Shown: positions 44,307-64,000, numbered from the stretch's first letter. The stretch is 64,000 nucleotides of DNA from an uncultured Holophagales bacterium (GCA_963842525.1 CAWJGT010000003.1:704001-768000), one strand, 5' to 3'. Notes: a model not told the origin generated them from the letters alone. Program-made: numbers and translations.

Positions 44307-46009
<1,703 letters not shown>

Positions 46010-46010
<1 letters not shown>

Positions 46011-49000: not shown

Positions 49001-50251
49001 CGCCGGCGCGGTCTGATCGCCACCGTGACCCTTTTCCTTCTCCTCGTGGCCGTGGGCACGCGCCTCGCCCGCAACTTCACACGTCCGCTCATGCAGCTCG
49101 TCGCCGGGACCGAGCGGATCGCCGCGGGCGCCACCTCGCTCAACCTGAAGCCCACCGAGCTCGAGCTGGCGGCCCTGGTGGAAGCCGTGGACGAGATGGC
49201 GCGCCGCATCGCCGAAGGGCGCGAGCGGCTGGTGCGCGAAAAACAAGTCATAGAAAGAATGGTCGAGAACATCACCTCGGGTGTGGTCTCCCTCGACCAG
49301 GACGGCCGTGTGCTGATGCGCAACCGCGTGGCCGCCGAGCTCCTCGGCGCCGAGGTGGGCGAGCGGCTCGAACGTGTCGCGGCCGAAGAGCCGCGGCTCG
49401 CGCCCGTCGCCGCCTTCCTGCGCCGCGTCGATCAGGAGAGGGGCCTGGAGATGGAGCGCGAGACCGTGCGCCTGGCCGGTGCGGAAGGCGAGCGCGAATG
49501 GGCGCTCGTCTGGGTGCCGCTCCCCGGCGCGGGCGAGCCCGCGGCCCTACTCGTCGTCGAGGACGCCACCGAAGTGCTGCGCAACCAGCGCCTGCTCGCC
49601 TGGGCCGAGATGGCGCGCATCATCGCCCATGAGATCAAGAACCCGCTCACCCCCATCCGCCTCTCGGCCGAGCACATGCGCGAGGTCTGGCGGGCCGATC
49701 CCGAACATTTCGACCGGGTCTTCGAACGTTGCACCACCAACATCCTCACCCAGGTGGAAGAGCTGCGCACCATCGCCTCCGACTTCTCGTCCTACAGCGC
49801 CATCCTGCGCATCGAGCCCAAGCCAGGGGACCTCACCGCCGCTGTCTCCGACCTCGTCGAGGGCTACCAGGCCGCACCGCCGAACGGCATCCAGCTCGAC
49901 CTCGAAGCCGGCGGTCCGATTCCCGCGCGGTTCGACGGCAAGCTCCTCCAGCGCGCGCTCCGCAACCTCCTCGAAAACGCCCTGCGCGCCGCCGCCGCCG
50001 GGGGAGGCCACGTCTGGGTCCGGGTGGGGCAGGACGACGGCCACGCCCGAATCTCGGTCCTCGACAACGGCCCCGGCGTCCGCCCCGAAAACCTGCCGCG
50101 CATCTTCGACCCCTACTTCTCGACCCACGACACCGGCACCGGCCTCGGCCTCCCCATCGCCCGCCGCGTCGTCGAAGAGCATGGCGGACACATCGCCGCC
50201 CACAACCGCCCGGAAGGGGGGTTGGAGGTGACGATTACGCTGCCGGTGTGA
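46010..50251 (+). CDS. Large multi-TM NtrY-like sensor histidine kinase (HAMP-PAS-HisKA-HATPase)
   Basis: GTG start overlapping the hutU stop; many TM helices; [34 protein letters not shown]. Confidence 0.9.
47026..47190. repeat. In-frame palindromic repeat in an inter-helix loop of the sensor kinase
   Basis: ACCTCACCCCCTGTCCCCCTCTCCCATCTCCC..GGGAGATGGGAGAGGGGGACAGGGGGTGAGGT. Confidence 0.9.
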
Positions 50252-50971: not shown

Positions 50972-52228
50972 GTGGCCCGTATCGTCCTGACGACTTTCGG
51001 CTCTCTCGGGGACATCCACCCCTACCTTGGCCTCGGCAGCGGCTTGCGGGCCCGGGGACACCGCGTCGCGCTGGCGACGCACGGATTCTACCGGGCCAAG
51101 ATCGAGGCGGAAGGGATCGAATTCTTCTCTGTGCGGCCCGACGCGGACCCGGATGACCGCGCGCTGGTGGCCCTGGCCATGGACATCAAGAAGGGGCCGG
51201 AGCGCGTGTTGCGGGACATCGTGCTGCCGGTTCTGCGGGAGAGCTACGAGGATCTGCTCGCCGCGTCCCGCGGCGCCGATCTCGTGGTGGGGCATCCTCT
51301 CGCCTTCGCGGCCCCCTTGGTCGCCGGCGTGCTCGGCATCCGCTGGGCGTCGGCGGTCCTGTCTCCGATCGGATTTTTCTCCGCCTATGATCCGCCGGTT
51401 CTGCCGCCCTATCCGTGGCTGGCGCGGCTGCGCGTCCTGGGTCCGCGGGTGAATCGCTGGGTGATGGATTTCGGCCGGCGCTCCGTCCTCCCCTGGACGG
51501 AGCCGGTGCGCCGGTTGCGGGAAGAGCTGGGGCTGCCCCCTGGCGCGAACCCGATCTTCGAGGGGCAGCACTCGCCGTCTCTCGTGCTGGCCCTCTTCTC
51601 GTCGCTCCTTGGGGCGCGGCAGCCGGACTGGCCGCCGCAGACGGTCACCGCCGGCCAGATCTTCTACGATCGCCATGGTGAGTCGACCGGGCCGGCCGAG
51701 CTGTCAGCCGAGGTCGAGGACTTCCTGGCCGCCGGCGAGGCGCCGCTGGTCTTCACCCTGGGCTCCGCCGCCGTCCTGAATCCGGGCTCCTTCTTTGCGG
51801 AGAGCGCGGCGGCGGCGCAGAGCCTGGGCCGGCGGGCGGTGCTGGTGGGGGAAGAATCGCAGGACAGCCTGCCGGAGTCGATCCTGGCCGTCCAGTACGT
51901 TGCCTACTCGCGCCTTTTCCCACGCGCAACGGCGATCGTGCATCAAGGTGGCATCGGCACCGTGGGGCAGGCCCTGGCCGCAGGTCGTCCGATGCTCGTG
52001 GTGCCGTTCAGCCACGATCAGCCGGACAACGCCGCCCGTCTCGTCCGCCTCGGCGTCGCCCGCACCCTCGGCCGCGACCGCTATCGAGCCGCCCCGGCCG
52101 CCGCCGAGCTCCGGCAGCTCCTCTCCGATCCTGGCTACGCCGAGCGAGCCGCGCAGGCCGGAGAGCACGTCCGCCGCGAGACCGGTCTCGAGACGGCATG
52201 CGATGCGATCGAGCGGTTGCTCTACTGA
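50972..52228 (+). CDS. Family 1 glycosyltransferase
   Basis: GSLGDIHPYL, FTLGS, VHQGGIGT, PFSHDQPDNA. Confidence 0.93.
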   Translation: MARIVLTTFGSLGDIHPYLGLGSGLRARGHRVALATHGFYRAKIEAEGIEFFSVRPDADPDDRALVALAMDIKKGPERVLRDIVLPVLRESYEDLLAASRGADLVVGHPLAFAAPLVAGVLGIRWASAVLSPIGFFSAYDPPVLPPYPWLARLRVLGPRVNRWVMDFGRRSVLPWTEPVRRLREELGLPPGANPIFEGQHSPSLVLALFSSLLGARQPDWPPQTVTAGQIFYDRHGESTGPAELSAEVEDFLAAGEAPLVFTLGSAAVLNPGSFFAESAAAAQSLGRRAVLVGEESQDSLPESILAVQYVAYSRLFPRATAIVHQGGIGTVGQALAAGRPMLVVPFSHDQPDNAARLVRLGVARTLGRDRYRAAPAAAELRQLLSDPGYAERAAQAGEHVRRETGLETACDAIERLLY

Positions 52229-52263
52229 AGGCCTGCAGCCCGAGGGAGTGCTATCCTCGATCC

Positions 52264-52575
52264 ATGCATCCGCTGCTTCTACAACATAGGGCCGGCATCG
52301 ATACTCTCTGCCGTCGTTCTCACGTGCGGCGGTTGGAGGTATTCGGCTCGGCCGCTCGCGGAGAGGACTTCGACCCCCGGCACTCCGACATCGATTTTCT
52401 GGTGGAGTTCAACCGAACGCACATCACGCCGACGTTGGGTACCTTCCTCGAGCTGCGCGATCAGTTGGCCGCCCTGGTGGGGCGGCCCGTGGATCTGGTG
52501 ATGGCGGGAAGCATCCGGAATCCCTTCATCCAGGCCGACATCGAACGGTCGCGCGAGACGGTGTATGCGTCGTGA
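52264..52575 (+). CDS. mntA: MNT nucleotidyltransferase antitoxin
   Basis: VFGSAARG..SDIDFLV..GRPVDLV; overlaps the HEPN gene. Confidence 0.88.
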   Translation: MHPLLLQHRAGIDTLCRRSHVRRLEVFGSAARGEDFDPRHSDIDFLVEFNRTHITPTLGTFLELRDQLAALVGRPVDLVMAGSIRNPFIQADIERSRETVYAS

Positions 52576-52921
52576 GCCGCGTGCGTACCTCTGGGATGTG
52601 CGGGAGGCGGCGGACGCCATCCTGGAATTCACGCTCGGGCTTCGCCTCGACGACTATCTCGCCGACCGAATGCTGCGTTCCGCCGTCGAACGGCAGTTTG
52701 AGATCATCGGTGAGGCTCTGAACCAATTGTCCAAGGTGGCGCCGGAGATAGCCGCCAGAATTCCGGATCTTCCACAGATTGTCGCCTTTCGAAACCTGTT
52801 GATCCACGGCTACGCCACGGTGGATCATCCTACAGTTTGGGAGACGCTCCAATCACAGGTTCCGGCCTTGCGCAACTGCGTAGCAGAGCTGCTGGATGGG
52901 TATGGACCGGCTGGCGCCTGA
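52565..52921 (+). CDS. hepT: HEPN/DUF86 RNase toxin
   Basis: AVERQFEIIGEA, RNLLIHGY (Rx4HxY). Confidence 0.9.
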   Translation: MRREPRAYLWDVREAADAILEFTLGLRLDDYLADRMLRSAVERQFEIIGEALNQLSKVAPEIAARIPDLPQIVAFRNLLIHGYATVDHPTVWETLQSQVPALRNCVAELLDGYGPAGA

Positions 52922-53109
52922 CGATTGCCAGGAGCGCCGCGGTCCGGCTAGCCGGCGAGGAGCTGCTCCTCCAGCCGCCGGACGCTGCGTGGCCCTCGTG
53001 CCCCCTCCAAGCTGCTCGATTCGCCGCGCGATGCCGTAGAATCTCCCTGAAGTGTCCAGAGACCGAGTTCTTGCAGAGAAGGGTCTTTTTCAGAAAGAGA
53101 GGAGCGGAC

Positions 53110-53541
53110 ATGGGAATCAGATCACTCAGGATTGTCGCAGCATTGGTGGTGCTCGCCTTCGCGGCGATGGGGAGCTTGGCAAACGGGGAAGATCTTGAAA
53201 AAGCCATCTTCGGACAACCGGAGGCCCCTCGAGCTGAGGCGTCTCCCTTCGAAGCTTCTCCCCTGCTGTTTCTCGCCAGTTCCAGCTCCTGCTGGGCGGC
53301 TTTGAGCTGCGATGACGGCAGCGTCGTCAATTGCTCCTGTCCAGCGCCAGCCGGCGGGGTCTGTAACGACTATCCGACGGGCAGCCCCTGGGGTGGTTAT
53401 GTCCGCTGCCAGTGCACCGGCAGCCCATATGTCCAGGAGCACCACTGCAATGCGCCAACCTGCACACAGGCGTCCTGCAACAGCCAGTGTGGTGGCCCGG
53501 GAAGTGGCGTTTGCTCTGGAAATACCTGCTACTGCTACTGA
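53110..53541 (+). CDS. Secreted cysteine-rich (14 Cys) protein with a defensin-like C-terminal domain
   Basis: GAGGAG RBS; signal peptide; acidic pro-like spacer; ends CTQASCNSQCGGPGSGVCSGNTCYCY. Confidence 0.8.
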   Translation: MGIRSLRIVAALVVLAFAAMGSLANGEDLEKAIFGQPEAPRAEASPFEASPLLFLASSSSCWAALSCDDGSVVNCSCPAPAGGVCNDYPTGSPWGGYVRCQCTGSPYVQEHHCNAPTCTQASCNSQCGGPGSGVCSGNTCYCY

Positions 53542-53630
53542 GGACCGCTCCGTTGCCGAAGAGCCCGTAAGTCAGCTCGCCGAGATCAGGGCCGTGCTCT
53601 TCGGCACATTTGCATCCACGCTGCGGGATT

Positions 53631-54092
53631 TCAGGCTCGCGATGAGCCGGTGAGAACACCTCCATCAGGCCCCAGACGCGGCAGTACCATGGAGAAGCTC
53701 TTACCCTTCGACGAGCGGAAGACAGTGAAGCCTCGGTAGTCGAGCGTCAAGATCTCGAAGACGCCCAGACGCTCGGCGAGAAGCACCAGGGTTGCATCGG
53801 CGTAGTCCATCGGTATGTTTGCGTACTTCTCCATTCGGCGAGCGGCCTCGGCCAACGCTGCTGCCTCACTGAAGTCGAAGATTTGCAGCCCGCTTTGCGC
53901 GACGAACTCGGCCAAGAGGACGGGACCTCTGCGGTCTGCTGCCAAAAGGTGCATCGCCTCCGTGATGACGGCCGTGGTCGTGAGGAGCTGCCCGGAAAAA
54001 GCGTCGAGCCGAGCAGCGACTCGGGCGTGCTGCTTTTCCGATGCGTCGAGGTAGGCGACGATGGGGCCGGTGTCGAGAATCCAGGCTTTCAA
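53631..54092 (-). CDS. vapC: PIN-domain toxin
   Basis: ILDTGP, VITEA, MDYADA, TLD..F. Confidence 0.88.
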   Translation of the reverse strand: MKAWILDTGPIVAYLDASEKQHARVAARLDAFSGQLLTTTAVITEAMHLLAADRRGPVLLAEFVAQSGLQIFDFSEAAALAEAARRMEKYANIPMDYADATLVLLAERLGVFEILTLDYRGFTVFRSSKGKSFSMVLPRLGPDGGVLTGSSRA

Positions 54093-54328
54093 GACCGGAA
54101 GTTACTCTCGCGAAGGTGAGCGCGCCAGGGATCGGAGGCGTCTTTCTGGAGATGGAGCTGCCCTCGCAGATGGCCAACTCGCTTCGCCATTGAATGCTCT
54201 GCCACAGCCTCGCTGAGGATTTCCCGCGCCAGCTCCGGGACGGTCTTGCCCTGCATCGCCGCCCGCTCCTGGAGAGCTTCATGGAGCTTCTCATCCGTGG
54301 GGATGGTCAGGGTCAGCATCGTGCTCAT
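54089..54328 (-). CDS. RHH-type antitoxin
   Basis: TLTIPTDEKLHEALQERAAMQGKTVPELAREIL; overlaps vapC. Confidence 0.82.
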   Translation of the reverse strand: MSTMLTLTIPTDEKLHEALQERAAMQGKTVPELAREILSEAVAEHSMAKRVGHLRGQLHLQKDASDPWRAHLRESNFRS

Positions 54329-54380: not shown

Positions 54381-55502
54381 TTACGCCGCCAGCACCTCCC
54401 CCAAAGCCGCCAGGAAGCGCTCCATCTGCGGCCGGGTGCCGACGGTCACCCGCAGGTGGGTGGGGAGCGCGGGGAAGCGGCGGCCGACCTGGACGCGCCG
54501 CTCACGCAGTTGATCGATCACCTTGCCGACGTCCTGCCGCAGATCGGTCATCAGGAAGTTAGTCTGCGAGGAGATGGACCGGTAGCCGCGGTTGGCGAGC
54601 TCGCCGGTCGCCCAATCCCTCGTCTCCCGATTGAGGCGCCGGCTTCGCTCCAGATGGGCGGTGTCGCTGAGGGCGGCCTGGGCGGCGGCCAGGGCCTGGA
54701 GGTTCAGGGTGTCCCAGGCCTGGTGGAAGCGCAGGCGGTCCAGCGTCTCGGGACGCGCCAGGGCGTAGCCGCAGCGCAGGCCGGCCATGCCGTAGATCTT
54801 CGAAAAGGTACGCGCCACCACCAGATTCGGATGCTCCGCCACCAACGGCACGACGGACTCGTAGCCGTCCCCGTTTGCATAGTGGTGATAGGCCTCGTCG
54901 ACCAGCGCGACCGTGCCGGCGGGCACGCGGGAGAGGAAGCCGCGCAGGTCCGGCGTCACGCTCCCCGTGGGGTTGTTCGGGTTGCAGATGTAGACCAGCC
55001 CGGCGAAGCGGGCCGCCTCGTGCATCTTCGCCAGGTCGTGCCGGTGGTCGGCGGTCAGCGCGGTCCGGATCACCTCCGCCCCGGCGGCGCGGGCATAGCG
55101 GCCGATGGCCTCGAAGGTGGGATCGGCCATCGCCACCGGGCGGCCGGGTCCGGTGAAGGCTGCGGCGCAGAGCTTGAGGATCTCGCCCGATCCGTTGCCC
55201 AGGAGCACGTGATCGCTCTCCACGCCGTGGAGCTTCGCGATCTCGTTGGTGAGGGCATCGGCGGCCTCGTCGGGATAGCGCCAGACCTGGTCGAACGCCT
55301 TGCGCATGGCGTCGAAAGCCGCGGGCGGCGGGCCGTACGGGTTCTCGTTGGAGCTCAGGCGGACGATGTCGTCCGGAACCGGGGGCGCCGTCTCGGTGCA
55401 AGACGCCGCAGGAAGGGGAGAGGGGCGCAGGGCCACCGAGGCGATCCCGGCCCCGAGGAGGCCGGCGAACCGCCGGCGCGAGATGGCAGTGACGAGCTCC
55501 AT
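54381..55502 (-). CDS. Histidinol-phosphate-type PLP aminotransferase with a Tat signal
   Basis: SRRRFAGLLG; LSSNENP, CNPNNPTG, DEAY, RTFSKIYGMAGLR.GY. Confidence 0.9.
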   Translation of the reverse strand: MELVTAISRRRFAGLLGAGIASVALRPSPLPAASCTETAPPVPDDIVRLSSNENPYGPPPAAFDAMRKAFDQVWRYPDEAADALTNEIAKLHGVESDHVLLGNGSGEILKLCAAAFTGPGRPVAMADPTFEAIGRYARAAGAEVIRTALTADHRHDLAKMHEAARFAGLVYICNPNNPTGSVTPDLRGFLSRVPAGTVALVDEAYHHYANGDGYESVVPLVAEHPNLVVARTFSKIYGMAGLRCGYALARPETLDRLRFHQAWDTLNLQALAAAQAALSDTAHLERSRRLNRETRDWATGELANRGYRSISSQTNFLMTDLRQDVGKVIDQLRERRVQVGRRFPALPTHLRVTVGTRPQMERFLAALGEVLAA

Positions 55503-55517
55503 GGCAAAACCTCCGGG

Positions 55518-55991
55518 TCACAGCCCCTTGAGCAGTACCTCCGCCGAGCTGACCTCGAAGCGGCCGGGCTGGTCGACCTTGAGGTCCTTGACGACGCAGT
55601 CCTCGATGAGGGCGGCGTAGCGGCGGGAGCGCATGCCGAGGCCGAAGGCGCGGGAGTCCATCTCCAGGCCCATGGCGCGGGCGAAGTCGCCGTTGCCGTC
55701 GGCCAGCATCAGGATCTTCTCGCCGACGCCCCGGGCGTTGCCCCAGGCCCCCATCACGAAATGGTCGTTGACGGCCACGCAGGCGATCGTGTCGATCCCC
55801 TTGGCCTTGAGGTCGTTCGCCCGTTCGACGAAGCTGGGCAGGTGCTGGTCGGAGCAGGTGGGGGTGAAGGCCCCGGGGACCGCGAAGAGGACGACCCGCT
55901 TGCCACGGCAGAGCTCGGTCGTGGAAATGTCCTTGCCGTCGGACGTCTTCAGCTTCACATCGGGGATCGTCTGACCGATCTCGATCGCCAT
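55518..55991 (-). CDS. Peroxiredoxin (Prx5 type)
   Basis: VPGAFTPTCSDQHLP, VNDHFVM.AW, RSRRYA. Confidence 0.93.
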   Translation of the reverse strand: MAIEIGQTIPDVKLKTSDGKDISTTELCRGKRVVLFAVPGAFTPTCSDQHLPSFVERANDLKAKGIDTIACVAVNDHFVMGAWGNARGVGEKILMLADGNGDFARAMGLEMDSRAFGLGMRSRRYAALIEDCVVKDLKVDQPGRFEVSSAEVLLKGL

Positions 55992-56070: not shown

Positions 56071-57423
56071 TCACTGGCAGGGGCGGAGGAGCTCCCGTTC
56101 GCGCAGCACGGCCCGGCGGAGGGCGTCCTCGCCGGTGAATCCGAGGGACCGGGCGTAGGTGTCGAGGTCGGCCGGCCGGGGTCGGCCGAGCCGCTCCTCG
56201 AAGAACCAGCGCCACAGCTCTTCGTCCGTGCATCCCGCATCGGCGAGGGAGGGGTTTTCGAGGCCCCTTGCCGCGACGAGGCGCTGTTTTTCCCGCGCCA
56301 GGGCTTGCAGGGCGCCCCAGGCCCCGGTCGTGCGCAGGTGGTCGCGCAGGTGGGGGTCGAGGTCGACCTCGATCATCTGGAGGACCTTGCCGATCAGCGC
56401 CTCGTCGCGCATCAGGAGGGCGAACGACTCCGGGCTCATCTCCTGATCGCCGAGCCAGCTTCGTAGCTCTCCCTCGTTGAACAGCCCGCGTTCGCGCCGG
56501 AACCTCTCCGCCGCCGCCTCCACTGCTGCGGAATCCACCCCGATGCCGAGCTGTGCGGCCAGCTCGAGGGCGAGGGCCCGGGCCCGGGCGGTTTCTCTGG
56601 ACCGCAGGCAGAGATCCCCCTGGAGGCCGAGCTCTTCGAGCGCCGCGTCGGCCAGCCGGTCGCGGCCGCCTGGATCGGGCTCTCGCTGCTGCGCCTCCCG
56701 GCGGAGCATCTCCCATTCCAGGGTGTGCTGGAAGCGGAAGCGCACCGGCTTCGGAGGCGTGCCGGCGTCCCGCCGCTCGCGGAGGTGGTGCAGCAGAGCG
56801 AGGGCATCGGCGCGTTTCTGGTCCACCCGGTTCCGCGGCAGCCAGGACTCCAGGGCGGCGAGCCTGTCCTGTGGAAGGCCTTCGCGGGCGGCGCGCCGGA
56901 GGAGGCCTGGAAAGGTGCGCTCGGGGTAATAGAGGCTTTTCGCGATGCCGATCAGCGCCTGCCGGACCTCTGGTGCGAGGACGCCCGCCGCTTCCGCCGC
57001 GGCGAGCGTCCAACGCACGTTGACCAGAGCCTCCGAGGCTGCCTGGAAGCCTGCCTCGGCGGGGCCGTGGACGACCGCCACCTCGTCGTCGTCGTCCAGC
57101 TCGCCGGCGCGGAATGCCGCGAACACCTCGCCCACGCCCTCCATGCCGAAGACCTCCAGCTCGGCTGCGCGGAGCGCCCCCATGCTGGCCGCTCCGACGA
57201 CGTGAACGCCCTCGGCCAGGGCCCAGAGGATCTCCTTGTGCAGGACCGCGGGGACCCGCTCGAAATAGCCGTCGACGAGGCCGATCGCCCAGGGGCGCCG
57301 GCGGGCCGCGCGGTAGACGTCCCCCCGCGCCGCCGGCGGGAGGTAGACGGCGTCGAGGTGCCGCCTCGCCTCGGCGACGGAGAGGGTGGGCCCGAGGAAG
57401 ACGACGATCTCAGGAGAGCTCAT
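56071..57423 (-). CDS. tfuA: TfuA-like protein with a C-terminal helical (SurA/PpiC-related-like) extension
   Basis: VVFLGPTL, PPAARGD, LVDGYF..VLHKEI, GAASMGALRAAEL, DDDEVAV.H, DQKRADA. Confidence 0.92.
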   Translation of the reverse strand: MSSPEIVVFLGPTLSVAEARRHLDAVYLPPAARGDVYRAARRRPWAIGLVDGYFERVPAVLHKEILWALAEGVHVVGAASMGALRAAELEVFGMEGVGEVFAAFRAGELDDDDEVAVVHGPAEAGFQAASEALVNVRWTLAAAEAAGVLAPEVRQALIGIAKSLYYPERTFPGLLRRAAREGLPQDRLAALESWLPRNRVDQKRADALALLHHLRERRDAGTPPKPVRFRFQHTLEWEMLRREAQQREPDPGGRDRLADAALEELGLQGDLCLRSRETARARALALELAAQLGIGVDSAAVEAAAERFRRERGLFNEGELRSWLGDQEMSPESFALLMRDEALIGKVLQMIEVDLDPHLRDHLRTTGAWGALQALAREKQRLVAARGLENPSLADAGCTDEELWRWFFEERLGRPRPADLDTYARSLGFTGEDALRRAVLRERELLRPCQ

Positions 57424-58654
57424 CCGAGGTGGCGGCCGCGCGGGCCCGCGGCCCAGGCAGATAGCCCGTCAGGTCGGCGTCGGTCTCCAGGCCGGGGACC
57501 ACGACGTGCACGACGGGAACCCCGAAGGCAGGGTGCGTCAGGTCGACGGCCACCGCCTGCCGCATCCCGGCTTCGGCAAGGCGTTCGAGGAGCCAGCCCA
57601 CGTCCTCGGCGAAGGTCTCGCTCTCCCGGGTCGGCGCCTCGCAGAAGCCGCGCAGCGGTCCCGTCGGCTCCACGTCCTCGGCGATGCGCTGCGCCTCGTC
57701 CGCGTCCCGCAGCCGCTCGTAGTGTTCCAGGCGCAGATCGTCCCGCGATCCGGCGATGGAGGTGAGGCGGGTCTGGGCCGCTTCGGTAAGGGCCCGCAGA
57801 AGCGCCACCTCGCGCGCCGGGTGGCACCCCAGGCCGGCGCCTGCGAAGAGCGGATGAAAGGGATCGGGATCGCGGTCGAGGATCGTGCAGCGGAAGGCCG
57901 GGACACCGAGGTCGCTCGTGAGGTCCCAGACTGCCACGGCGATGCCGGCGCGCTCGTAGAGGTCCAGGGCTTCGCGGCAGGCGGGATCGTCGACCGTCGC
58001 GAGGTCCACGCGCGTGCGCTGCTGGACGCCGGGCGGGCGCGCGAGCCAGAGCGCGTTCGCATCCCGCTCGATCACCTCGCAAAGGGCATGGGAGAGCGCC
58101 TCCAGAGGATGGTTGCCCGACGCCAGGCCGTTGGACGACGCGGCGAAGCAGCCGCTTCCCGGGGCCAGCGGCAGGGTGAGGTTCATGTGGACCATCTCGT
58201 AGGGGACCCAGACCGCGGTGTCGCCCAGCAGGTCGTGTCCCTCGATCCACAGCAGTTGCAGGTCGTCGTGAAAGAGGCTGGTGGACAGCCGCGGCAGGGC
58301 GGAGACCTCCGCCAGCGGATGAGTGAAGCGAAGCTCGTTGAAGCTGGCCAGCTTCAGCGGCTGCGTGATCCGCTCCGCATGGTACAGCTCGATCGCCTCC
58401 ATCAGGCCGGAGGCGCGGGCGGCGGCCAGGTCGAGCCCCTTGCCCTGGCTGACCGACAGCGAGCGGGCATTCGGGCGGCAGACCATCACGACCGGGAGCC
58501 CGATCCGGTCCAACCCGGTCACGTTGGCGACCCGGGTGATGCCCATCACAGGCGCCCAGCGCATCACCCGCTCGAGGGTCTGCTCCGGCGGCACCGCGCG
58601 GTGCGTGCCGGTGCGGAACGCCTTGACGCCCGGCTCTGCGGTCCCGGGAGTCAT
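57410..58654 (-). CDS. ycaO: YcaO-family protein (TfuA-associated, thioamide type)
   Basis: GITRVANVTGLDRIG.PV, SQGKG, MEAIE, SSNGLASGN, CEVIERD, TEAAQTR..GSRDD, VVVPGLE; no C-terminal PxP. Confidence 0.93.
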   Translation of the reverse strand: MTPGTAEPGVKAFRTGTHRAVPPEQTLERVMRWAPVMGITRVANVTGLDRIGLPVVMVCRPNARSLSVSQGKGLDLAAARASGLMEAIELYHAERITQPLKLASFNELRFTHPLAEVSALPRLSTSLFHDDLQLLWIEGHDLLGDTAVWVPYEMVHMNLTLPLAPGSGCFAASSNGLASGNHPLEALSHALCEVIERDANALWLARPPGVQQRTRVDLATVDDPACREALDLYERAGIAVAVWDLTSDLGVPAFRCTILDRDPDPFHPLFAGAGLGCHPAREVALLRALTEAAQTRLTSIAGSRDDLRLEHYERLRDADEAQRIAEDVEPTGPLRGFCEAPTRESETFAEDVGWLLERLAEAGMRQAVAVDLTHPAFGVPVVHVVVPGLETDADLTGYLPGPRARAAATSDELS

Positions 58655-58687
58655 CTCGAAGGACGCTCGAAAGGCGACGGCCGTGAG

Positions 58688-58942
58688 CTACTTCTTGGGA
58701 TCGCGGTACGCCTTCAGATTGAACAGATGACTGCCCTCATGATGCGACCCGATCGCGACGATCGGGTGAAGCTTCTTGGGTACGCTGTCCTTCGTGAGGA
58801 CCGCGTGGGCCACGCCCTGTTTGACCAGGTTCTCCACGAATTTCACGACCTCGGGATTGTCCGTCTTGTGAGGGGCGAGATCGGCATCCGTGACGGCATA
58901 GATGCTTCCGTCCTCGCCGACGATGAAAAATTTTCTCTCCAT
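58688..58942 (-). CDS. 84-aa small protein, candidate YcaO/TfuA substrate
   Basis: GGAGGG RBS; coding-like composition; sits 33 bp upstream of ycaO in the same orientation. Confidence 0.75.
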   Translation of the reverse strand: MERKFFIVGEDGSIYAVTDADLAPHKTDNPEVVKFVENLVKQGVAHAVLTKDSVPKKLHPIVAIGSHHEGSHLFNLKAYRDPKK

Positions 58943-58997
58943 GCCATCCCTCCGGTTCAGGCAGCTTCGGTGTTACGGATTGTCCTCGAAGACGGCT

Positions 58998-61900
58998 TCA
59001 GCGTACCACGGCGGGTCCGGCCGCCTCAATCCCGAGCGAGCCGAGCAGGGCCGCCGCGTCCTGGAGGTCGGGGGTGGCGAACCCTTCGGAGAAGGAGGCG
59101 TAGAGGGGGGCGAGGAGATTGCGGGCCTCCTCGTCCCGTCCCTGGCTGCGCCAGAGCCGCGCGAGGCTGGCGGCGGCGCGCAGCTCCAGGGCTTTCGATC
59201 CCAGGCGCCGGGCGAGGTCCAGGGCCTGCCGGAAGCGCTCGGCCGCTTCCTCGAGGCGGGCGTGTCCGCCGGGCTCCAGGAGCGCGAGCTCCCCCTCGAG
59301 CCGGTGGATCTCCGGCTGCCAGAAGAAGCGGTCCTCCAGGCCGGAGAGGAGCTCGCGGGCGCGGGCGGCCGTACGCCGGCCCTCTTCGATCCGGCCCAGC
59401 CGGATATAGCACTCGATCAGCAGCGACAGCGTGTTGAGCTCCGAGAGCCTGGCCCTGGAGGCGCCGAAGGCTTCGATGCCGCCCAGCACGCGCCGCAGCC
59501 CCTCGGCATGGAGAGACGGGTCGGGCCCATGGACCATGGCCCAGCCGAGCCGCATGTTGCCGTGCGCCGCCTCATGGAGGAAGCCCTTCTCCTCCGCCAG
59601 GGTGACGAGGCTCGCGGCCTGCTCCCGCACGGCGGAGGCCTCGCGCCGGAAATAGCGCAGCCAGGTCGCCATGCTGAGGGCGTCGGCCAGGCTGTATGGG
59701 TGGGCGATCTCGCGGGCCAGCACGATGGCCTGCTCGCTGCGCGCGAGGGCCTGATCCGGGAGGCCGAGCTGCCAGAGGACGAGCCCCAGGGTACCGATCG
59801 AGGTGGCGGCGATGTCGATGCCGGTGACGGACATGGTGGAGCGGTCCCGCTCGGGAGAGTCGAGGGAGATCCCGCGCTCCAGGAGCTCGCGTGCCAGCGC
59901 CGGCTCGCCTCGGAAGAGCTGCGGCAGCGCCGCGGCCAGGTGGGCTTCGAAGAGGAGCGTGCGGTCGCCGCTCGCGTCGGCGAGGCGCATCATGCTCCGG
60001 CCGAGCTCCAGGGCCTTCGGAAGCTCCGCCCGGATGAGATGGAACACCCAGAGACCGCGCAGGACCCAGAAGTGCTCCGGCGTCTCCCCCAGCCTGTTGC
60101 AGAGCTCCAGGGCGCGCGCATAGCACTGCTCGACCCCCTGAGTGGTGTAGCCCCGCGTGGCGATCAGCGCCGGCCCGAGAGCGGTGCGCAGAGCGAGCTC
60201 CTGGGAGTCCCGCTCCCGGCCTTCGGGCAGCGCATCGAGCAGCCCGAGGCCTTTCTCGAAGTGGCCGATCGCCTCGACGTGAGCCGACCGCTCGGCGGCG
60301 TGCCGCCCGGCCTCCAGCCAGCAGGGCAGGGCCTGCTCGTGCAGGCCGGCCTCGGTGAAGTGGTGGGCCACCACCTCGGGCCGCGCCGCGGCCTCGGCCG
60401 GGAACTGCTCCGTCAGGGCCGCGGCGATCCGCTGGTGGAGCTGCTGCCGGGTGCTGCGCAGGAGAGAGCCGTAGGCGGCCTCCTGGAGCAGGGCGTGTTT
60501 GAAAGTGTAGGACGCCGCGGGCGGCACGCCCCGCTGGTAGAGCAGATCGGCGTCGACGAGCCGCTCGAGCTCGCGGCGCAGCGTCTCTTCGGGGAGCGGG
60601 CAGACCGCGCGGATCATGCCCCAGGTGAGCTCCCGGCCGAGCACGGCGGCGATCTGCACGACTTCGCGGGTCCCCGACAGGCGGTCCAGGCGGGCCAGGA
60701 GGGAGTCCTCGAGCGTCGCCGGGATGGCGAGCGGCGGCAGCGGCGCGGTCAGGACATAGCGCTGCCCCTCCTCCCGCAGGAGTCCCGAGCCGAGGAGCAT
60801 CTTGGTCAGCTCCTCCACGAACAGGGGCACGCCGTCGGTCTTCGCCACGATCTGGAGGAGGACCTCCGGAGGCAGGGTGCGGCCGCCGGCCACGCCGCGC
60901 GCCAGCGCCTCCACCTCGCTCTCGCCGAGGTGGTCCAGCAGGATGTGGACGATCGCAGGGTGCCCTCCCCAGGCCGGACTGAACGACGGGCGGGAGGTGA
61001 GCAGCAGGAGGAGCCGCAGGCTCGGGCCCTGTCGCACCAGCAGCTTCAGGAACTCGAGCGTCGAAGGGTCCACCCAGTGCAGGTCCTCGATCGCCAGGAC
61101 CACCGGCCCGCGCTCCGCCAGGGCGGCGAGGATCCCGAGCAGCGCGCTCAGCGTCTTCTCCTTGCGCCGCTGCGGGGTCAGGCCGAGGGTCTCCCGGTCC
61201 TCTCCCGGCTCGAGGCCGAGGAGCCGGGCGAAGAGCTCCCTCTCCTCCGCCCCGGGAAACCCGAGCGCGACCAGCCCTTCCTGCAGCTTGCGGAGCCGGT
61301 CGGCCGCCGTGTCCTCGGGCCGTAGCCGGAGCAGATCCTGGAGAAGGTCGAGGACGGCGGAGAAGGCGCTGTTCTGCTGGAAGAGCGAGCAGCGGCAGAC
61401 GAGCCACCGGTGGACCTCGCCGGCGGCGCGCTCGCGGAACAGTTGGACCAGGCGCGACTTGCCGATCCCAGCATCGCCGGTGATGAGGACTGTCCGCCCG
61501 TGCCCCTCCTGGACCTTTTCCAGGCTGCGGAGCAGGGTTGCCAGCTCGTCCTGCCGTCCCACCGCCGGGCTCAGCCCGCGCGCCAGGGCCAGCTCGAAGG
61601 AGGTGCGCACTCCGCTCTGGCCCAGCACCTGGTGCACCTCGAGCGGCGCGGAGACCCCCTTGAGGACTCTGGGACCGAGCGACCGGCAGGCGAAGAACCC
61701 CTGGACGAGCGTCTGGGTCTGATCGCTGACCACGACGGTCCCCGGCTCGGCGAGCGCGCAGAGCCGGGCCGCGATGTTCGGCGTCTGCCCGATCGCGAGC
61801 CGCTCGCGCACCTCGCCGCTGCCGACCTCTCCGGCCACCGCGGAGCCGGTATGGATGCCGACGCGGACTCCCAGCCGGATCCCCTGCACCGCCTCCAGGC

Positions 61901-62360
61901 GCGGCGTGAGCCGCTCGATCGCCTCGATGATCCCCAGCCCGGCGTGCACCGCGCGCTGCGTGTCCTCCTCGTGCGCCACGGGATATCCGAAATAGGCGAG
62001 CAGGCCGTCTCCCAGACGCTGGGCCGTGTGCCCGCCAAAGCGGTCGACCACCTCCCCGGCGGCGTCCTGGCAGGTACGCAGGATCTCCAGGTACTCCTCG
62101 GGGTCGAGCCCCGCCGAGGTCGTCAGCGCGCAGAAGAGCACGCTGAGGCGGCGGCGCTCGGCCGCGGGCTCCTGGGCGGGCCACGCCGGCGCCGCGGCCT
62201 CAGCCGCCGATGCCAGCGGCCGGCCGCACCTGCCACAGAACTTGTGTCCGGGAGGGATCTCGAAACCGCACGCGGAGCAGACCTGCCGCAGAGGGCTGCC
62301 GCACTGGCCGCAGAACCGCATTCCTTCCGGATTGTTCGAGCCGCAGGTGGGGCAGAGCAT
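58998..62360 (-). CDS. Double Zn-ribbon + class III cyclase-like + AAA/STAND ATPase + TPR protein
   Basis: Four CxxC pairs; ERRRLSVLFC..GDG..RVGIHTG..PNIAARL; GDAGIGKS; IEDLHW; GVPLFVEE; FKHAL; C-terminal FSEGFATPDL. Confidence 0.92.
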   Translation of the reverse strand: MLCPTCGSNNPEGMRFCGQCGSPLRQVCSACGFEIPPGHKFCGRCGRPLASAAEAAAPAWPAQEPAAERRRLSVLFCALTTSAGLDPEEYLEILRTCQDAAGEVVDRFGGHTAQRLGDGLLAYFGYPVAHEEDTQRAVHAGLGIIEAIERLTPRLEAVQGIRLGVRVGIHTGSAVAGEVGSGEVRERLAIGQTPNIAARLCALAEPGTVVVSDQTQTLVQGFFACRSLGPRVLKGVSAPLEVHQVLGQSGVRTSFELALARGLSPAVGRQDELATLLRSLEKVQEGHGRTVLITGDAGIGKSRLVQLFRERAAGEVHRWLVCRCSLFQQNSAFSAVLDLLQDLLRLRPEDTAADRLRKLQEGLVALGFPGAEERELFARLLGLEPGEDRETLGLTPQRRKEKTLSALLGILAALAERGPVVLAIEDLHWVDPSTLEFLKLLVRQGPSLRLLLLLTSRPSFSPAWGGHPAIVHILLDHLGESEVEALARGVAGGRTLPPEVLLQIVAKTDGVPLFVEELTKMLLGSGLLREEGQRYVLTAPLPPLAIPATLEDSLLARLDRLSGTREVVQIAAVLGRELTWGMIRAVCPLPEETLRRELERLVDADLLYQRGVPPAASYTFKHALLQEAAYGSLLRSTRQQLHQRIAAALTEQFPAEAAARPEVVAHHFTEAGLHEQALPCWLEAGRHAAERSAHVEAIGHFEKGLGLLDALPEGRERDSQELALRTALGPALIATRGYTTQGVEQCYARALELCNRLGETPEHFWVLRGLWVFHLIRAELPKALELGRSMMRLADASGDRTLLFEAHLAAALPQLFRGEPALARELLERGISLDSPERDRSTMSVTGIDIAATSIGTLGLVLWQLGLPDQALARSEQAIVLAREIAHPYSLADALSMATWLRYFRREASAVREQAASLVTLAEEKGFLHEAAHGNMRLGWAMVHGPDPSLHAEGLRRVLGGIEAFGASRARLSELNTLSLLIECYIRLGRIEEGRRTAARARELLSGLEDRFFWQPEIHRLEGELALLEPGGHARLEEAAERFRQALDLARRLGSKALELRAAASLARLWRSQGRDEEARNLLAPLYASFSEGFATPDLQDAAALLGSLGIEAAGPAVVR

Positions 62361-62387
62361 CGGATCTCTTCGAAGAGCGGCGGCGCC

Positions 62388-64000
62388 CTATCGTGCTCCG
62401 AGGGCCTCTGCCGCCGGCCGGGCCTCCTGCCTGGTCGCAAGGCGAAGATATTCGTCGAGCGGAAAACTGTCCACCTGGACGGCGTCGGCCCGGGCCGCCG
62501 CGGCCTCGCGCACCAGGGCGGCCTCGTCCGGCGTGAGCAGGCCCGCGGCGAGCGCCGGCTCGACCAGGGCCTCCGGCGCTCCCGGCGGGGTTCGTCCCGG
62601 CGCGGGAGGCACGGGCGATCCGATCCAGCAGAGGAGCGCTGCGGGTGGCGAGAACGAAGGCGCGCTCCAGCCGGCCGAGGGCCTCCTGGGGACCGGCGGG
62701 GAGGAAGAGGCCGGCCGTCAGCCGGTCGCGCAGCTCTCCCGGCTGGCGGAGGACCGCGGCCACCTGCGACCCAAGCTGGTCGTCCGGCGGCCGGCCGAGA
62801 GGGTTGGCCCGGCACCACCACGCTCCGGCGCCGCGCAGGAGCCAAGCCAGCGGTCCCTCGAAATTCTGATAGATCCCCTCGAAGGCGGTCTGGATGCGGG
62901 CGAGGGCGTGCTCGACGGCCCAGCGCGCGAGCGGCAGGTCCTCGTCGCGCCGGCCCTCGGCCTCGAAACGGCGGAGGGCGCAGAAGCCCAGGTACATCCA
63001 CGACAGGACGTCGGCGAAACGGCCGCTCAGCTTCTCGCGGAATTTGAGCCGGCTCCCCAGGGAGAGGACCGCCAGGTCGGTCAGCACCGCGAAGCGGGCC
63101 GAGGCCCAGGAGAGCCTGCGGTAGTAGCGGGAGGTCGATCCGGGCACCGGAGAGCGGACGAGGCGTCCGCGGGTGAGGCCGAGGACGGCGGATCGGAGGA
63201 GATTGCGCAGGAAGAAGGCCGCATGGCCGCGCAGGGCACGCCGCAACGCCTTCGCATCCCCCTGCTCCAGGGCCCGCACCTCGGCCAGCGCCCAGGGGTG
63301 GCCGCGGAGAGCTCCCTGGCCGAAGATGATCAGCGTCCGGGTGAGGATGTTCGCCCCCTCGACCGTGATGCCGATGGGTGCGCCGGCGTGGCCGGCCGCG
63401 AGCAGGTTGCGCGGCCCGCGGCTGATCGCGGCGCCGCCCAGGATGTCCATGCCGTCCTGGACGAGGGAGCGCAGCAGCTCCGTCTGGTTGTACTTGGAGA
63501 CGGCCGAGAGCACGGCAGGCCGTTGGCCGGCGTCCACGGCGCCGCAGGTGTAGACCCGCGCTGCTTCCATGAGATAGGTCAGGCCGGCGATGCGGGCGAG
63601 CGGCTCCTCGATCCCCTCGAAGCGGCCGATCTCGACGCCGAACTGCCGGCGGACCATGCTGTACGCACCCGCCACCCGGGCCACGTACTTGGCGCCGCCG
63701 ACCGACTGGGCGGGGAGCGAGATCGCCCGGCCGGCCGAGAGTGCCTCCATCAGCATCTTCCACCCCTTGCCGGCCTGGCCGAGGCCGCCGAGGATCTGAT
63801 CGGCCGGGATGACCACGTCCCGTCCCTCGGTCGGGCCGTTGGGCATGGGCACGCCCATGGGGTCGTGCCGGTCGCCGATCTGTATGCCTGGCAGTTGAGT
63901 AGGGACGAGGGCCACGGTGATGCCCAGGTCGTCGGTTGCCTCGGCGCGTCCGAGAAGGTTCTCCGGGTCGCGCAGCCGGAAGGCGAGGCCGAGCAGGGTG
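62388..64000 (-). CDS. fadE: Acyl-CoA dehydrogenase (FadE type), 5'-partial, frameshift near 62610
   Basis: GWKMLMEALSAGRAISLP, RRQFG..IGRFEGIEE, MDILGG, ITVEGANILTR; C-terminus ..AVQVDSF in ORF 62388..62612. Confidence 0.92.

Follow-up and report, generated by a model that had tools for sequence, protein, structure and literature searches.

A YcaO–TfuA cassette with a conserved small protein and a STAND-type partner in a Holophagales bacterium: a possible intracellular thioamide signal

Introduction

The closest described relatives of the system considered here are enzymes that install backbone thioamides. In archaea, a YcaO–TfuA pair is reported to form the thioglycine (Gly465) of methyl-coenzyme M reductase McrA (PMC5589413), and in actinobacteria the RiPPs known as thioamitides (thioviridamide type) and thiovarsolins are described, in excerpts of two papers, as being thioamidated by YcaO–TfuA (PMC6511847, PMC8120280). 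According to an excerpt of a further paper, the YcaO of E. coli thioamidates ribosomal protein uL16 (PMC13063428).

Here we analyse a cassette in a 64,000-nucleotide stretch of DNA from an uncultured Holophagales bacterium (GCA_963842525.1, CAWJGT010000003.1:704001-768000; hereafter the window) in which genes for YcaO and TfuA are joined to those for a small protein and a STAND-type signalling protein. An earlier note on this DNA had proposed that the small protein is the substrate of the enzymes and that thioamidation is used in intracellular signalling or defence. In the literature that we searched, we found no description of the four-gene combination.

Results

Four genes in a recurring order

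Translation of the window yielded, as the earlier note had described, four tightly spaced and co-oriented ORFs, all on the minus strand. These encode a STAND-type signalling protein of 1120 residues (P0001; 58998..62360), identified by Pfam and NCBIfam matches and by its orthologues, a small protein of 84 residues (P0002; 58688..58942), a YcaO of 414 residues (P0003; 57410..58654) and a TfuA of 450 residues (P0004; 56071..57423). Their boundaries and spacing were also as first described: 55 nt separate the STAND gene from the small ORF and 33 nt separate the small ORF from ycaO, while the ycaO and tfuA reading frames overlap by 14 nt. Inspection of the sequence revealed a Shine-Dalgarno element, GGAGGG (58948..58953, minus strand), 5 nt ahead of the ATG of the small ORF. 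A sigma-70-like promoter match, which is a consensus match only, precedes the STAND gene by ~85 nt (62445..62473, minus strand), and is the single match between positions 55300 and 63000, where 0.1 would be expected from shuffled sequences. The same order of STAND gene, small ORF(s), ycaO and tfuA is repeated in four related genomes of two other genera, and the arrangement exceeds chance; the four-gene combination is moreover retained in several bacterial phyla.

Among the flanking ORFs of the window that were scanned with Pfam, none encodes a protease, an exporter, a LanD-like protein or a methyltransferase, in agreement with the earlier note. A gene for a Prx5-type peroxiredoxin, which that note had overlooked, lies 80 nt downstream of tfuA and is conserved in none of the related loci. 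Toxin–antitoxin pairs are found 2-4 kb from the cassette, within a stretch of lower GC. Thioamitide clusters carry tailoring genes for a LanD-like decarboxylase, a methyltransferase and a phosphotransferase/lyase pair; such genes were absent from the scanned flanks (Pfam), no cluster of this kind recurred in the 81 loci that we compared, and a thioamitide cluster was rejected as an identity for the locus.

A small-protein family tied to ycaO

The 84-residue ORF is a real gene. Neither P0002 nor its 16 relatives could be assigned to a Pfam or NCBIfam family, and the alignments place P0002 in an unnamed family that is marked by three motifs: hhIxGDDGxhY in an N-terminal hairpin, G-h-h-h-A-x-h-P at the centre and (C)-Y-L-h-N-L-x-S-h-R at the C-terminus. 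The hairpin motif occurs across phyla; in P0002 it is FFIVGEDGSIYAV (residues 5-17; 58892..58930, minus strand), with Gly12 and Tyr15 invariant in one family alignment (A1). The translation likewise contains the C-terminal segment to which the earlier note had drawn attention, VAIGSHHEGSHLFNL, at residues 62-76. We propose as the region of modification the stretch SHLFNLKAYR (residues 71-80; 58703..58732, minus strand), which aligns with the C-terminal family motif. In the family alignment this motif is preceded by a G-x-G-(A/S)-(A/S) stretch, and in many members it is followed by a tail of just 3-10 residues. In the acidobacterial clade that includes the window the conserved Cys of the family is exchanged for His, Gly or Phe, so that the motif is looser there than in other phyla. 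Conservation extends over the whole domain of ~70 residues, not just one end.

A profile of the family matched P0002 in its own genome at 2e-13, as a single copy; of the 301 genomes from the phylum, only two gave a match. In the fetched loci, 48 of the 50 profile matches, from 39 of 40 sources, immediately precede ycaO in the same orientation, and the remaining two are a single two-domain ORF in locus L028; across 41 whole genomes, all eight matches lie upstream of ycaO, in five genomes with an orthologous YcaO. Two or three tandem copies of the small gene are present in some loci (L016, L017, L046, L056, L064 and L029). The family thus has traits of a RiPP precursor, namely a small gene beside a modifying enzyme, a conserved part and, in some genomes, multiple copies. 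The conservation of the small ORF beside ycaO–tfuA, on which the earlier note had made its proposal depend, was found across phyla and, together with the tandem copies, lends support to the view that P0002 is the substrate; P0002 also showed no likeness to thioviridamide precursors, as had been surmised. We consider it probable that the small protein is modified by YcaO and TfuA.

The enzyme pair

P0003 matched the Pfam YcaO profile over its full length (293 bits, positions 1-325 of 325). Its best NCBIfam match was TIGR03266, McrA-glycine thioamidation protein (222.1 bits), its closest solved chain was the thioamidating MJ1094 of M. jannaschii (6pe3; E 9e-37), and its match to the NCBIfam model YcaO_for_S12 was weak (1.5e-8). 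P0004 carries a TfuA catalytic domain at residues 1-220 (56764..57423, minus strand; Pfam TfuA, 160 bits), matched NCBIfam NF033432 with 228.6 bits, and gave a model that resembled TfuA of M. acetivorans (6xp8; Foldseek E 1e-18, TM(target) 0.92, 39% identity). Both scores fall below the equivalog cutoffs (365 for TIGR03266 and 235.2 for NF033432), and neither protein was assigned to these McrA-thioamidation equivalogs. Sequence and structure comparison identifies the pair as the bacterial kind nearest to the archaeal McrA-thioglycine enzymes. P0003 is 45-66% identical to 64 relatives across phyla and keeps all 45 columns that are invariant in the 65 aligned YcaO proteins; identity at this level across phyla fits a static substrate, as is argued for uL16 in the excerpt of PMC13063428.

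Beyond its catalytic domain TfuA has a C-terminal helical extension of ~230 residues (residues 225-450 plus stop; 56071..56751, minus strand), which is conserved in 49 of 49 aligned relatives and was modelled with a pLDDT of 93.4. Its top fold matches (VIA) were SurA, PEB4/Cj1289, PrsA and trigger factor, with Z values of 5.0-7.1 (3rgc_B, 7.1; 8qpv_F, 6.4; 2pv3_B, 6.3; trigger factor 7zgi_B, 6.3; E. faecium PPIase 9ibn_B, 6.2), all below 8 and within the range that the tool calls common for helical models. Foldseek returned 2pv3_A with a probability of 0.99 but an E value of 0.42, and Pfam SurA_N_3 was matched at 6e-4 (20.1 bits, below the cutoff of 27.2). The model thus hints weakly at a resemblance to SurA-like chaperones.

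A STAND protein with a degenerate cyclase domain

P0001 matched Pfam AAA_16 (2e-23, 84 bits), Guanylate_cyc (3e-13), DZR (8e-12) and TPR_12 (1e-8), and it has the make-up of a STAND protein: an AAA_16 P-loop NTPase followed by TPR-like repeats, with an output domain at the N-terminus. Encoded on the minus strand are, in turn, a double zinc-ribbon (residues 3-46; 62223..62354; Pfam DZR and Zn_Ribbon_1), which is kept at the N-terminus of the aligned orthologues, a degenerate cyclase-homology domain (residues 84-238; 61647..62111), the AAA_16 NTPase domain with the Walker A sequence GDAGIGKS (residues 267-452; 61005..61562; Pfam and alignment) and a C-terminal helical-repeat sensor region that contains the TPR_12 match (residues 1035-1083; 59112..59258). 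Alignment to CyaB (3r5g) and 14 relatives indicated that the first metal-binding Asp of the cyclase domain, present in 14 of 14 relatives, is replaced by Ala, with four residues deleted (LFCALTTSAG); the domain retains the second Asp as well as the Asn and the Arg. With Ala at the first of the two Asp positions, P0001 was rejected as an active class III nucleotide cyclase. The loss of one metal-binding Asp makes a cyclic-nucleotide output doubtful in the window, where the cyclase domain of P0001, judged by its residues, looks inactive.

TOMM kinase/cyclase fusion proteins, the subject of NCBIfam TIGR03903 (TOMM_kin_cyc), are reportedly neighbours of cyclodehydratase-type TOMM clusters. P0001 scored 541.1 bits against this model, below its cutoff of 705.75, and aligned to profile positions 271-1266; the alignment leaves out the kinase part, and Pfam detected no Pkinase domain in P0001. 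With its score under the cutoff and the N-terminal kinase absent, P0001 was not counted as a member.

At related loci, the corresponding position is taken by orthologues that share 48-57% identity with P0001. Its own genome also encodes three paralogues in unrelated contexts (40-50% identity), which are as close to P0001 as the cassette STANDs of other phyla (31-39%) or closer, so that the STAND family is not exclusive to the cassette. Matches to P0001 occur at ~8 places in this genome of 9.95 Mb, and a random 16-kb window would therefore hold one ~1% of the time.

Linkage, partners and distribution

In the 52 loci with 5 kb or more on each side, an AAA_16–TPR STAND protein is encoded near 26 of the 27 that bear the small protein versus 10 of the 25 that do not, a count that overstates the statistics because related genomes are not independent. 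The linkage of the STAND gene, the other point on which the earlier note had staked its proposal, is thus conserved, and it is very likely that the STAND protein is functionally coupled to the cassette. The 42 partner proteins comprise 23 with a kinase, 9 with an N-terminal cyclase, 2 with both kinase and cyclase, 3 with a C-terminal cyclase, 1 with a sigma-54/HTH output, 1 with AAA_16 only and 3 cyclase–TPR proteins without AAA_16; the outputs vary while the AAA_16–TPR core stays. The complete kinase–cyclase–AAA_16 form is found in the Sorangium partners (L044 and L031), and DNA-binding outputs are found in some STAND relatives (at locus L075, and in C34, a paralogue of P0001 with Trans_reg_C). 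A cluster that adjoins the cassette in 5 loci consists of FHA proteins, judged by the 3 members scanned, and a Crp-like or cNMP-binding protein is a neighbour in 2 loci; both are possible readers of the STAND output.

Apart from antisense shadows of ycaO and tfuA, every further gene cluster recurs in at most 10 of the 81 loci, which means that no protease or exporter is conserved; L050 is the sole locus in which we noted a C39-peptidase ABC exporter. Of 70 loci with at least 700 nt of upstream sequence, 33 have a member of the small-protein family and 37 gave no profile match, and 8 of 80 loci have, in the absence of the small hairpin protein, two conserved Pfam-less genes downstream of tfuA. 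Both observations suggest that YcaO and TfuA act on substrates of more than one type. The cassette represented in the window is accessory and patchy in its distribution, and none of the five other genomes of the same genus has it.

Discussion

The reading that we favour, and to which we give slightly less than an even chance, is that YcaO and TfuA thioamidate the small protein and that the STAND protein is a dedicated signalling partner of the cassette. An enzyme pair of the McrA-thioglycine type would swap a backbone oxygen for sulfur, using ATP and a sulfide equivalent. We guess the site to lie in the conserved motif near the C-terminus of the small protein, SHLFNLKAYR in the window, and the SurA-like extension of TfuA would probably hold the substrate. 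The repeat region of the STAND protein may then bind the small protein once it is modified, or a fragment of it, and turn on whichever output domain the lineage carries, a Ser/Thr kinase, a nucleotide cyclase or a sigma-54 activator, so that the thioamidated product would act within the cell and not as an exported antibiotic. That the STAND protein senses the product, instead of merely regulating the operon, is the more tentative part, and we put it somewhat below even. The signalling half of the earlier proposal is favoured indirectly by the swappable outputs, by the FHA and cNMP-binding neighbours in some loci and by the lack of a conserved exporter or protease; the defence half found no support, PADLOC having returned generic cyclase similarity only.

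LAL, SARP/AfsR and MalT-type regulators, which combine AAA and TPR regions, sit beside biosynthetic genes, and a STAND protein acting as an ordinary cluster-situated regulator is a live rival. The locus would then be a thioamide RiPP cluster: its precursor would have a long leader and a short, thioamidated C-terminal core, and a protease encoded at another locus would release this core for export as an antibiotic or a metal-binder. We regard this as unlikely, yet it accounts for a good deal: known thioamide RiPP clusters, in the excerpts cited (PMC8120280, PMC6511847), likewise have a small ORF ahead of ycaO and tfuA, and they often have no transporters (PMC8120280); RiPP precursors typically come in tandem copies, as the small gene does here in some loci; and the G-x-G-(A/S)-(A/S) stretch could, in our reading, serve as a double-glycine-type cut site. 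The exporter of L050 fits as well, and the DNA-binding outputs of some STAND relatives would suit a plain regulator equally well. Against these points, the presumed core has not diversified but is conserved between phyla, no protease or exporter recurs in the 81 loci, most partner STANDs have kinase or cyclase outputs and not DNA-binding domains, and the short tail after the C-terminal motif leaves many members with only 3-10 residues there.

The small protein might instead serve the STAND protein or YcaO/TfuA as adaptor, chaperone or regulator, and the enzymes would modify another protein, perhaps the STAND protein itself or one encoded elsewhere. McrA and uL16 are encoded away from ycaO and are not small neighbours, according to the excerpts of PMC5589413 and PMC13063428; conservation over the entire domain and the occurrence of the enzyme pair without the small-protein family also fit. 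We nonetheless find this improbable given the strict position just upstream of ycaO, the tandem arrays and the lack of any profile match elsewhere in the 41 whole genomes; loci without the family, moreover, carry other candidate substrates. Very improbable, in our estimation, is an NLR-like anti-phage system in which the STAND protein senses infection and a thioamidated protein or cyclic nucleotide triggers growth arrest. The STAND architecture, the patchy distribution and the toxin–antitoxin pairs nearby would accord with such a system, as would the PycC match of the P0001 cyclase in PADLOC (4e-13), a generic class III likeness to Pycsar cyclases. In PADLOC-DB 2.0, however, P0001 gave only this generic PycC-type similarity and weak SngB and SspF matches, and P0002-P0004 matched no model; a known anti-phage defence system was accordingly rejected. 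Furthermore, the outputs of the 42 partner STANDs are kinases, cyclases or a sigma-54 activator, with no toxic effector domain among them, the scanned flanks contain no phage or mobile-element genes, and the cyclase domain of the window is degenerate.

In its boldest form, which we consider rather unlikely, the favoured signalling reading would make the backbone thioamide a purpose-made intracellular signal: YcaO–TfuA would mark a dedicated protein of ~70 residues with sulfur, and an NLR-like STAND ATPase would read the mark with its repeat region and fire a kinase, cyclase or transcriptional output. If so, the cassette would unite the writer, substrate and reader of a post-translational modification that is not known to convey information, and the mark might report sulfur, redox or metal status.

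The cassette resembles the McrA pair in its best NCBIfam models and closest solved structures, and in the overlap of the ycaO stop with the tfuA start, as an excerpt of PMC5589413 describes; the McrA site there, FFG*FDLQ, also offers a weak analogy to the C-terminal motif of the small protein (h-h-X-h-(N/D)-L-polar). It differs in its bacterial host, in having a dedicated small protein next door as candidate substrate, in the extra domain of 230 residues on TfuA and in the linked STAND gene. With the thioamitides and thiovarsolins, as excerpted, it shares the succession of small ORF, ycaO and tfuA and, in some cases, multicopy precursors; their precursors, however, have no sequence similarity to P0002, and, unlike in thioamitides, the core motif of the cassette is conserved across phyla, genes for export or cleavage do not recur and a STAND protein is coupled. 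Backbone thioamidation of a conserved, non-diversifying target by a strongly conserved enzyme would be common to the cassette and to E. coli YcaO, which, in the excerpt of PMC13063428, is by contrast independent of TfuA, dimerises through a TPR domain of its own and modifies a housekeeping protein. Finally, like the TIGR03903 system, the cassette places a YcaO-type peptide-modifying system beside this kind of STAND protein, and P0001 aligns with the TIGR03903 protein over cyclase, NTPase and repeats; P0001 differs in carrying a zinc-ribbon in place of the kinase domain, and its neighbour is a thioamide-type YcaO–TfuA pair, not an azoline-forming cyclodehydratase fusion.

Organization of the four-gene cassette

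Translation and Pfam searches recovered the four open reading frames that the earlier note had joined into one cassette, together with the gaps and the overlap it described. These encode a STAND-type protein, P0001 (58998–62360, minus strand; 1120 aa, with Pfam double Zn-ribbon, Guanylate_cyc, AAA_16 and TPR_12 domains), a small protein, P0002 (58688–58942, minus strand; 84 aa, with no Pfam match), a YcaO protein, P0003 (57410–58654, minus strand; 414 aa, 293 bits over the full Pfam YcaO profile), and a TfuA protein, P0004 (56071–57423, minus strand; 450 aa, 160 bits to Pfam TfuA plus a sub-threshold match to SurA_N_3). The genes are separated by 55 nt and 33 nt and then overlap by 14 nt. A GGAGGG ribosome-binding site lies 5 nt ahead of the ATG of the small ORF, and both segments previously quoted from the 84-aa protein are present in its translation. 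The G+C content is ~72% in the cassette region and falls to 66% around the small ORF. Our search of sequencing runs returned one soil DNA run (share 0.07) and no RNA run among those listed.

A gene for a Prx5-type peroxiredoxin (55518–55990, minus strand; Redoxin, 123 bits) follows tfuA at a distance of 80 nt and in the same orientation, its true start being MAIEIGQ at 55990, with a GGGAGAG site. This gene is missing from all 85 of the other cassette loci that we fetched (L014–L098), which speaks against a fifth cassette member and makes it probably a mere neighbour. A FadE-type acyl-CoA dehydrogenase ORF (62200–63999, minus strand) passes the STAND start codon by ~160 nt in another frame; the Pfam ACDH_C match of this ORF stops ~130 residues short of its end, so either read-through or an indel in the assembly may account for the tail. 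Elsewhere in the window, a stretch of lower G+C content (52198–54328; 0.61–0.66 vs 0.71) contains two toxin–antitoxin-like pairs, one consisting of a nucleotidyltransferase (MNT, 52198–52575) and a HepT-like RNase (52565–52921), the other of a PIN protein (53631–54092, minus strand) and a FitA-like RHH antitoxin (54089–54328, minus strand). A HAMP-PAS histidine kinase of 1814 aa is encoded at 44807–50251 on the plus strand, and its ~1400 N-terminal residues have no Pfam match.

The small protein defines a conserved family encoded next to ycaO

Searches with P0002 as a single sequence returned only P0002 itself from a word index and no usable match from the ESM Atlas. With phmmer, among 1.84 billion representatives, the one match besides itself was P0005, a 1020-aa Big_2 repeat protein with six repeats matching the P0002 hairpin, which we judged to be a chance or low-information match. 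Orthologues of the YcaO protein (62–68% identity) were found in four genomes from two other genera of the same family, and a fifth on a cut contig, and in none of the five other genomes of the window's genus. All four genomes keep the order STAND, small ORF(s), YcaO and TfuA, with STAND and TfuA proteins 48–55% and 49–55% identical, respectively, to those of the window. Between the STAND gene and ycaO lie one, two or three small ORFs, whose products have in common the N-terminal hairpin hhIVGDDGxhYxh and, C-terminally, an h-h-N-L motif.

To survey the cassette more broadly, we scanned 185,579 species genomes with an alignment of long TfuA proteins (those with a C-terminal helical extension), and at least 551 of at least 599 pattern matches were confirmed. 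The best 80 of these loci come from Acidobacteriota (the closest), Myxococcota (Archangium, Corallococcus, Myxococcus and Sorangium), Chloroflexota, Alpha-, Beta- and Gammaproteobacteria, Gemmatimonadales, Acidimicrobiia, Nitrospiraceae, Methylomirabilis and Cyanobacteria, and in every one that has upstream sequence ycaO lies directly upstream of tfuA. Cultivated carriers include several myxobacteria and one Azospirillum.

A profile of the small protein, iterated over all six-frame segments of the fetched loci, converged at 50 domains from 40 sources. Forty-eight directly precede ycaO and share its strand; the remaining two form a single tandem two-domain ORF (L028 14164–14898) beyond the kinase-STAND gene that follows tfuA. 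Among the best 80 of the at least 551 loci, 70 have at least 700 nt upstream, and 33 of these contain a family member. Against 41 whole genomes the profile gave eight matches, all upstream of ycaO, in the five genomes with an orthologous YcaO, and across 301 genomes of the phylum it matched in two. The profile is specific, and on these counts the view that the small ORF is a conserved neighbour of ycaO was borne out.

The family consensus consists of a hairpin, D-L-h-I-x-x-D-D-G-x-h-Y-x-h, a central L-h-x-x-G-h-h-h-A-x-h-P and, past a G-x-G stretch, the motif (A/S)-C-(Y/F)-L-h-(N/D)-L-x-S-h-(R/K), behind which comes a short tail of variable sequence. The corresponding motifs read GVAHAVLT and SHLFNLKAYR in P0002, and GVSHAVLP and PHLLNLKSFR in its nearest relative, from locus L019; the family Cys is replaced in the acidobacterial clade to which P0002 belongs. 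None of 16 diverse members belongs to a Pfam or NCBIfam family, and each of the 43 database proteins retrieved by the profile is annotated as hypothetical or uncharacterised, none with a Pfam domain. Members of the Myxococcus type (P0019–P0021, P0036 and P0043, from Myxococcus and Corallococcus) are 214–236 aa long, contain an extra N-terminal region and have no obvious signal peptide. This myxococcal region is conserved and β-rich, and spans ~100 residues (ILEGFTTxLxVxGVP...). The small protein thus represents a real, conserved gene family that has no name. Eight of the best 80 loci (L071, L078, L079, L082, L088, L094, L096 and L098), which are without this family, have directly downstream of tfuA two conserved genes (~450 aa and ~200 aa, no Pfam match) that probably encode another type of substrate.

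The TfuA protein carries a helical extension

The best NCBIfam match of P0003 is the McrA-glycine thioamidation YcaO (TIGR03266; 222 bits, cutoff 365), and that of P0004 is its TfuA partner (NF033432; 228.6 bits, cutoff 235.2). Because both scores fall under the cutoffs, both enzymes are near, yet outside, the archaeal equivalogs. The closest solved YcaO is MJ1094 of M. jannaschii (E 9e-37). An AlphaFold model of P0004 built from a 50-row alignment (pLDDT 93) resembles M. acetivorans TfuA (6xp8) over residues 1–220 or so (Foldseek E 1e-18, 39% identity; TM 0.92 on the target). Since the search with the whole protein matched this N-terminal domain only, we folded and searched the C-terminal part separately. 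Residues 225–450 form an all-helical extension that is absent from the 217-residue archaeal protein and was modelled alone with a pLDDT of 93.4. The top fold matches are SurA-type chaperone modules (Foldseek 2pv3_A, prob 0.99, E 0.42). VIA-align returned 3rgc_B (Z 7.1), SurA 8qpv_F (6.4), 2pv3_B (6.3), trigger factor 7zgi_B (6.3) and E. faecium PPIase 9ibn_B (6.2), all Z values in the range that the tool flags as common for helical models. From these models it is reasonable to regard the extension as a candidate peptide-holding domain. A complex prediction of YcaO, TfuA and the small protein (948 residues, own alignments, without controls) gave a score of 0.00 against a mark of 0.32 and returned no verdict in either direction.

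The STAND protein is a conserved partner with interchangeable outputs

Matches to P0001 were detected by tblastn in 52 of the best 80 loci, and ORF clustering recovered a STAND-like protein (~1100 aa) from 56 of 81 loci; with antisense shadows of ycaO and tfuA set aside, no further ORF cluster occurred in more than 10 of the 81. Matches covering the NTPase were present in 45 of 80 loci and in 36 of the 52 flanked by 5 kb or more on each side, lying within 1.5 kb of the unit in 25 of the latter. The 52 full-flank loci divide into 26 with both the small protein and the STAND protein, one with the small protein and no STAND (L054, a partial match), 10 with STAND and no small protein, and 15 with neither, a cross-tabulation that is a description and no test because the relatives are not independent. 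The STAND linkage posited earlier is conserved, with 26 of 27 small-protein-bearing loci having the partner among these non-independent relatives.

Pfam searches of 42 partner proteins identified Pkinase-AAA_16(-TPR) in 23, an N-terminal cyclase followed by AAA_16 in nine (some preceded by a Zn-ribbon or SAM domain), AAA_16-TPR with a C-terminal cyclase in three, cyclase-TPR without AAA_16 in three, and kinase-cyclase-AAA_16 of the TIGR03903 form in two (Sorangium sp. So ce176, L044, and a Polyangia MAG, L031); one further protein combines a sigma-54 activator, HTH_8 and AAA_16, and one has AAA_16 only. Thus, the coupling to a STAND protein is conserved while the output domain is swapped between lineages. 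A search of solved structures found no sequence relative of the C-terminal 820 residues of P0001. Matches to the sigma-54 promoter consensus in locus L075 numbered four, against 3.75 expected, and so gave no signal. In an alignment of the P0001 cyclase domain with P. aeruginosa CyaB (3r5g) and 14 relatives, the first metal-binding Asp, kept in all 14 relatives, is replaced by Ala in P0001 beside a 4-residue deletion; loss of this residue makes cyclic-nucleotide output from P0001 appear doubtful.

Additional genes flank the unit in some loci. FHA-domain proteins cluster in five loci (three members scanned) and NmrA-like proteins in 10 (four members scanned). Six loci from acidobacterial relatives have a second Ser/Thr kinase-TPR gene (765–772 aa; three members scanned) directly upstream of the cyclase-STAND gene (L021 516–2819, L046 155–2458 and L056 120–2414, and also L022, L023 and L064); in the window, which is without it, FadE occupies that place. 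We also noted a Crp-like cNMP-binding regulator immediately after a cyclase-type STAND gene (L049 12563–13255), an ABC transporter with a cNMP-binding domain (L072 913–3822) and a C39-peptidase ABC exporter pair (L050 3351–8544).

A model for the cassette and its alternatives

YcaO proteins use ATP to activate the backbone amide, and TfuA supplies sulfide from a thiocarboxylated ThiS-type carrier (PMC8939145, PMC13063428). Given these activities, the cassette pair should thioamidate the peptide backbone of a substrate, for which the small protein appears the best candidate by its position, copy number and exclusive co-occurrence. We would place the thioamide in the C-terminal motif, because conservation near the end of the protein is highest there, because the tail beyond it is often only 3–10 residues, and because its pattern, hydrophobic-hydrophobic-X-hydrophobic-(D/N)-L-polar, is reminiscent of the McrA thioamidation site, 461-LGFFG*FDLQ (PMC5589413). 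By this analogy the modified residue might, tentatively, be the one two before the N/D, which is Leu73 in P0002.

What the STAND protein senses can be read in two ways. The classic STAND layout comprises a sensor, a switch and an effector, and the constant AAA_16-TPR core with interchangeable outputs suggests that the repeat region is the part that contacts the cassette. The modified small protein may then be the ligand bound by this region, a reading that we hold with somewhat less than even confidence. In the 9.95-Mb genome of the window, matches to P0001 fall at ~8 places. The protein has three paralogues there (40–50% identity), none near a YcaO: one intact and adjoining a TonB receptor (C9:497083–500487), one intact with a Trans_reg_C DNA-binding domain and an amidase nearby (C34:381925–385467), and one split between two frames (C3:1244911–1248262, L101; 50% identity over residues 1–466, 39% over 458–1117) that is probably a frameshifted pseudogene. 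No other peptide-modifying neighbours were seen around the paralogues in this genome. Cassette STAND proteins of other phyla are 31–39% identical to P0001; the own-genome paralogues are as close or closer, which indicates that the STAND family is broader than the cassette. A role for the STAND protein as a cluster-situated regulator with some other input has about as much support as the ligand reading. For the defence role that the earlier note had also entertained, we found no positive evidence: PADLOC returned generic cyclase similarity only, and the 42 partners contain no toxic effector domains.

The cassette pattern provides a directly testable hypothesis for the purpose of a thioamide, which could serve as a signal that a sensor ATPase detects. 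Were the ligand reading true, the small protein would also be a candidate for the natural ligand of many bacterial proteins of the kinase, cyclase and STAND types, which form a large class.

Comparison with known systems

Known backbone thioamides are limited to a few natural products and to the proteins McrA and uL16. To our knowledge, the substrates of most bacterial YcaO–TfuA pairs are still unknown. Full-text literature searches, at the level of listings, abstracts and selected passages, turned up no description of the small-protein family, the TfuA extension or the STAND link, and the terms cyclase, AAA, TPR, ATPase and myxo do not appear in the main text of a global survey (PMC8120280); the supplementary tables of that survey (613 cluster families, 797 precursor families) and of PMC6511847, which lie beyond this scope, may list these loci as unnamed families.

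Judged from sequence, the cassette would resemble the McrA and uL16 systems in working as protein thioamidation, but its enzymes fail the equivalog cutoffs of the McrA YcaO–TfuA pair. It resembles thioamide RiPP clusters in gene order, yet has none of the tailoring genes of thioamitide clusters, and P0001 differs from TIGR03903 proteins in scoring under the cutoff and in being without a kinase. We class the chemistry and the enzymes as known, and the substrate family, the enzyme domain and the conserved coupling to a signalling ATPase as new: the likely substrate of a bacterial YcaO–TfuA pair is pinned to a conserved small-protein family, and TfuA has a previously unremarked domain that may, on reasonable grounds from its model, hold the substrate.
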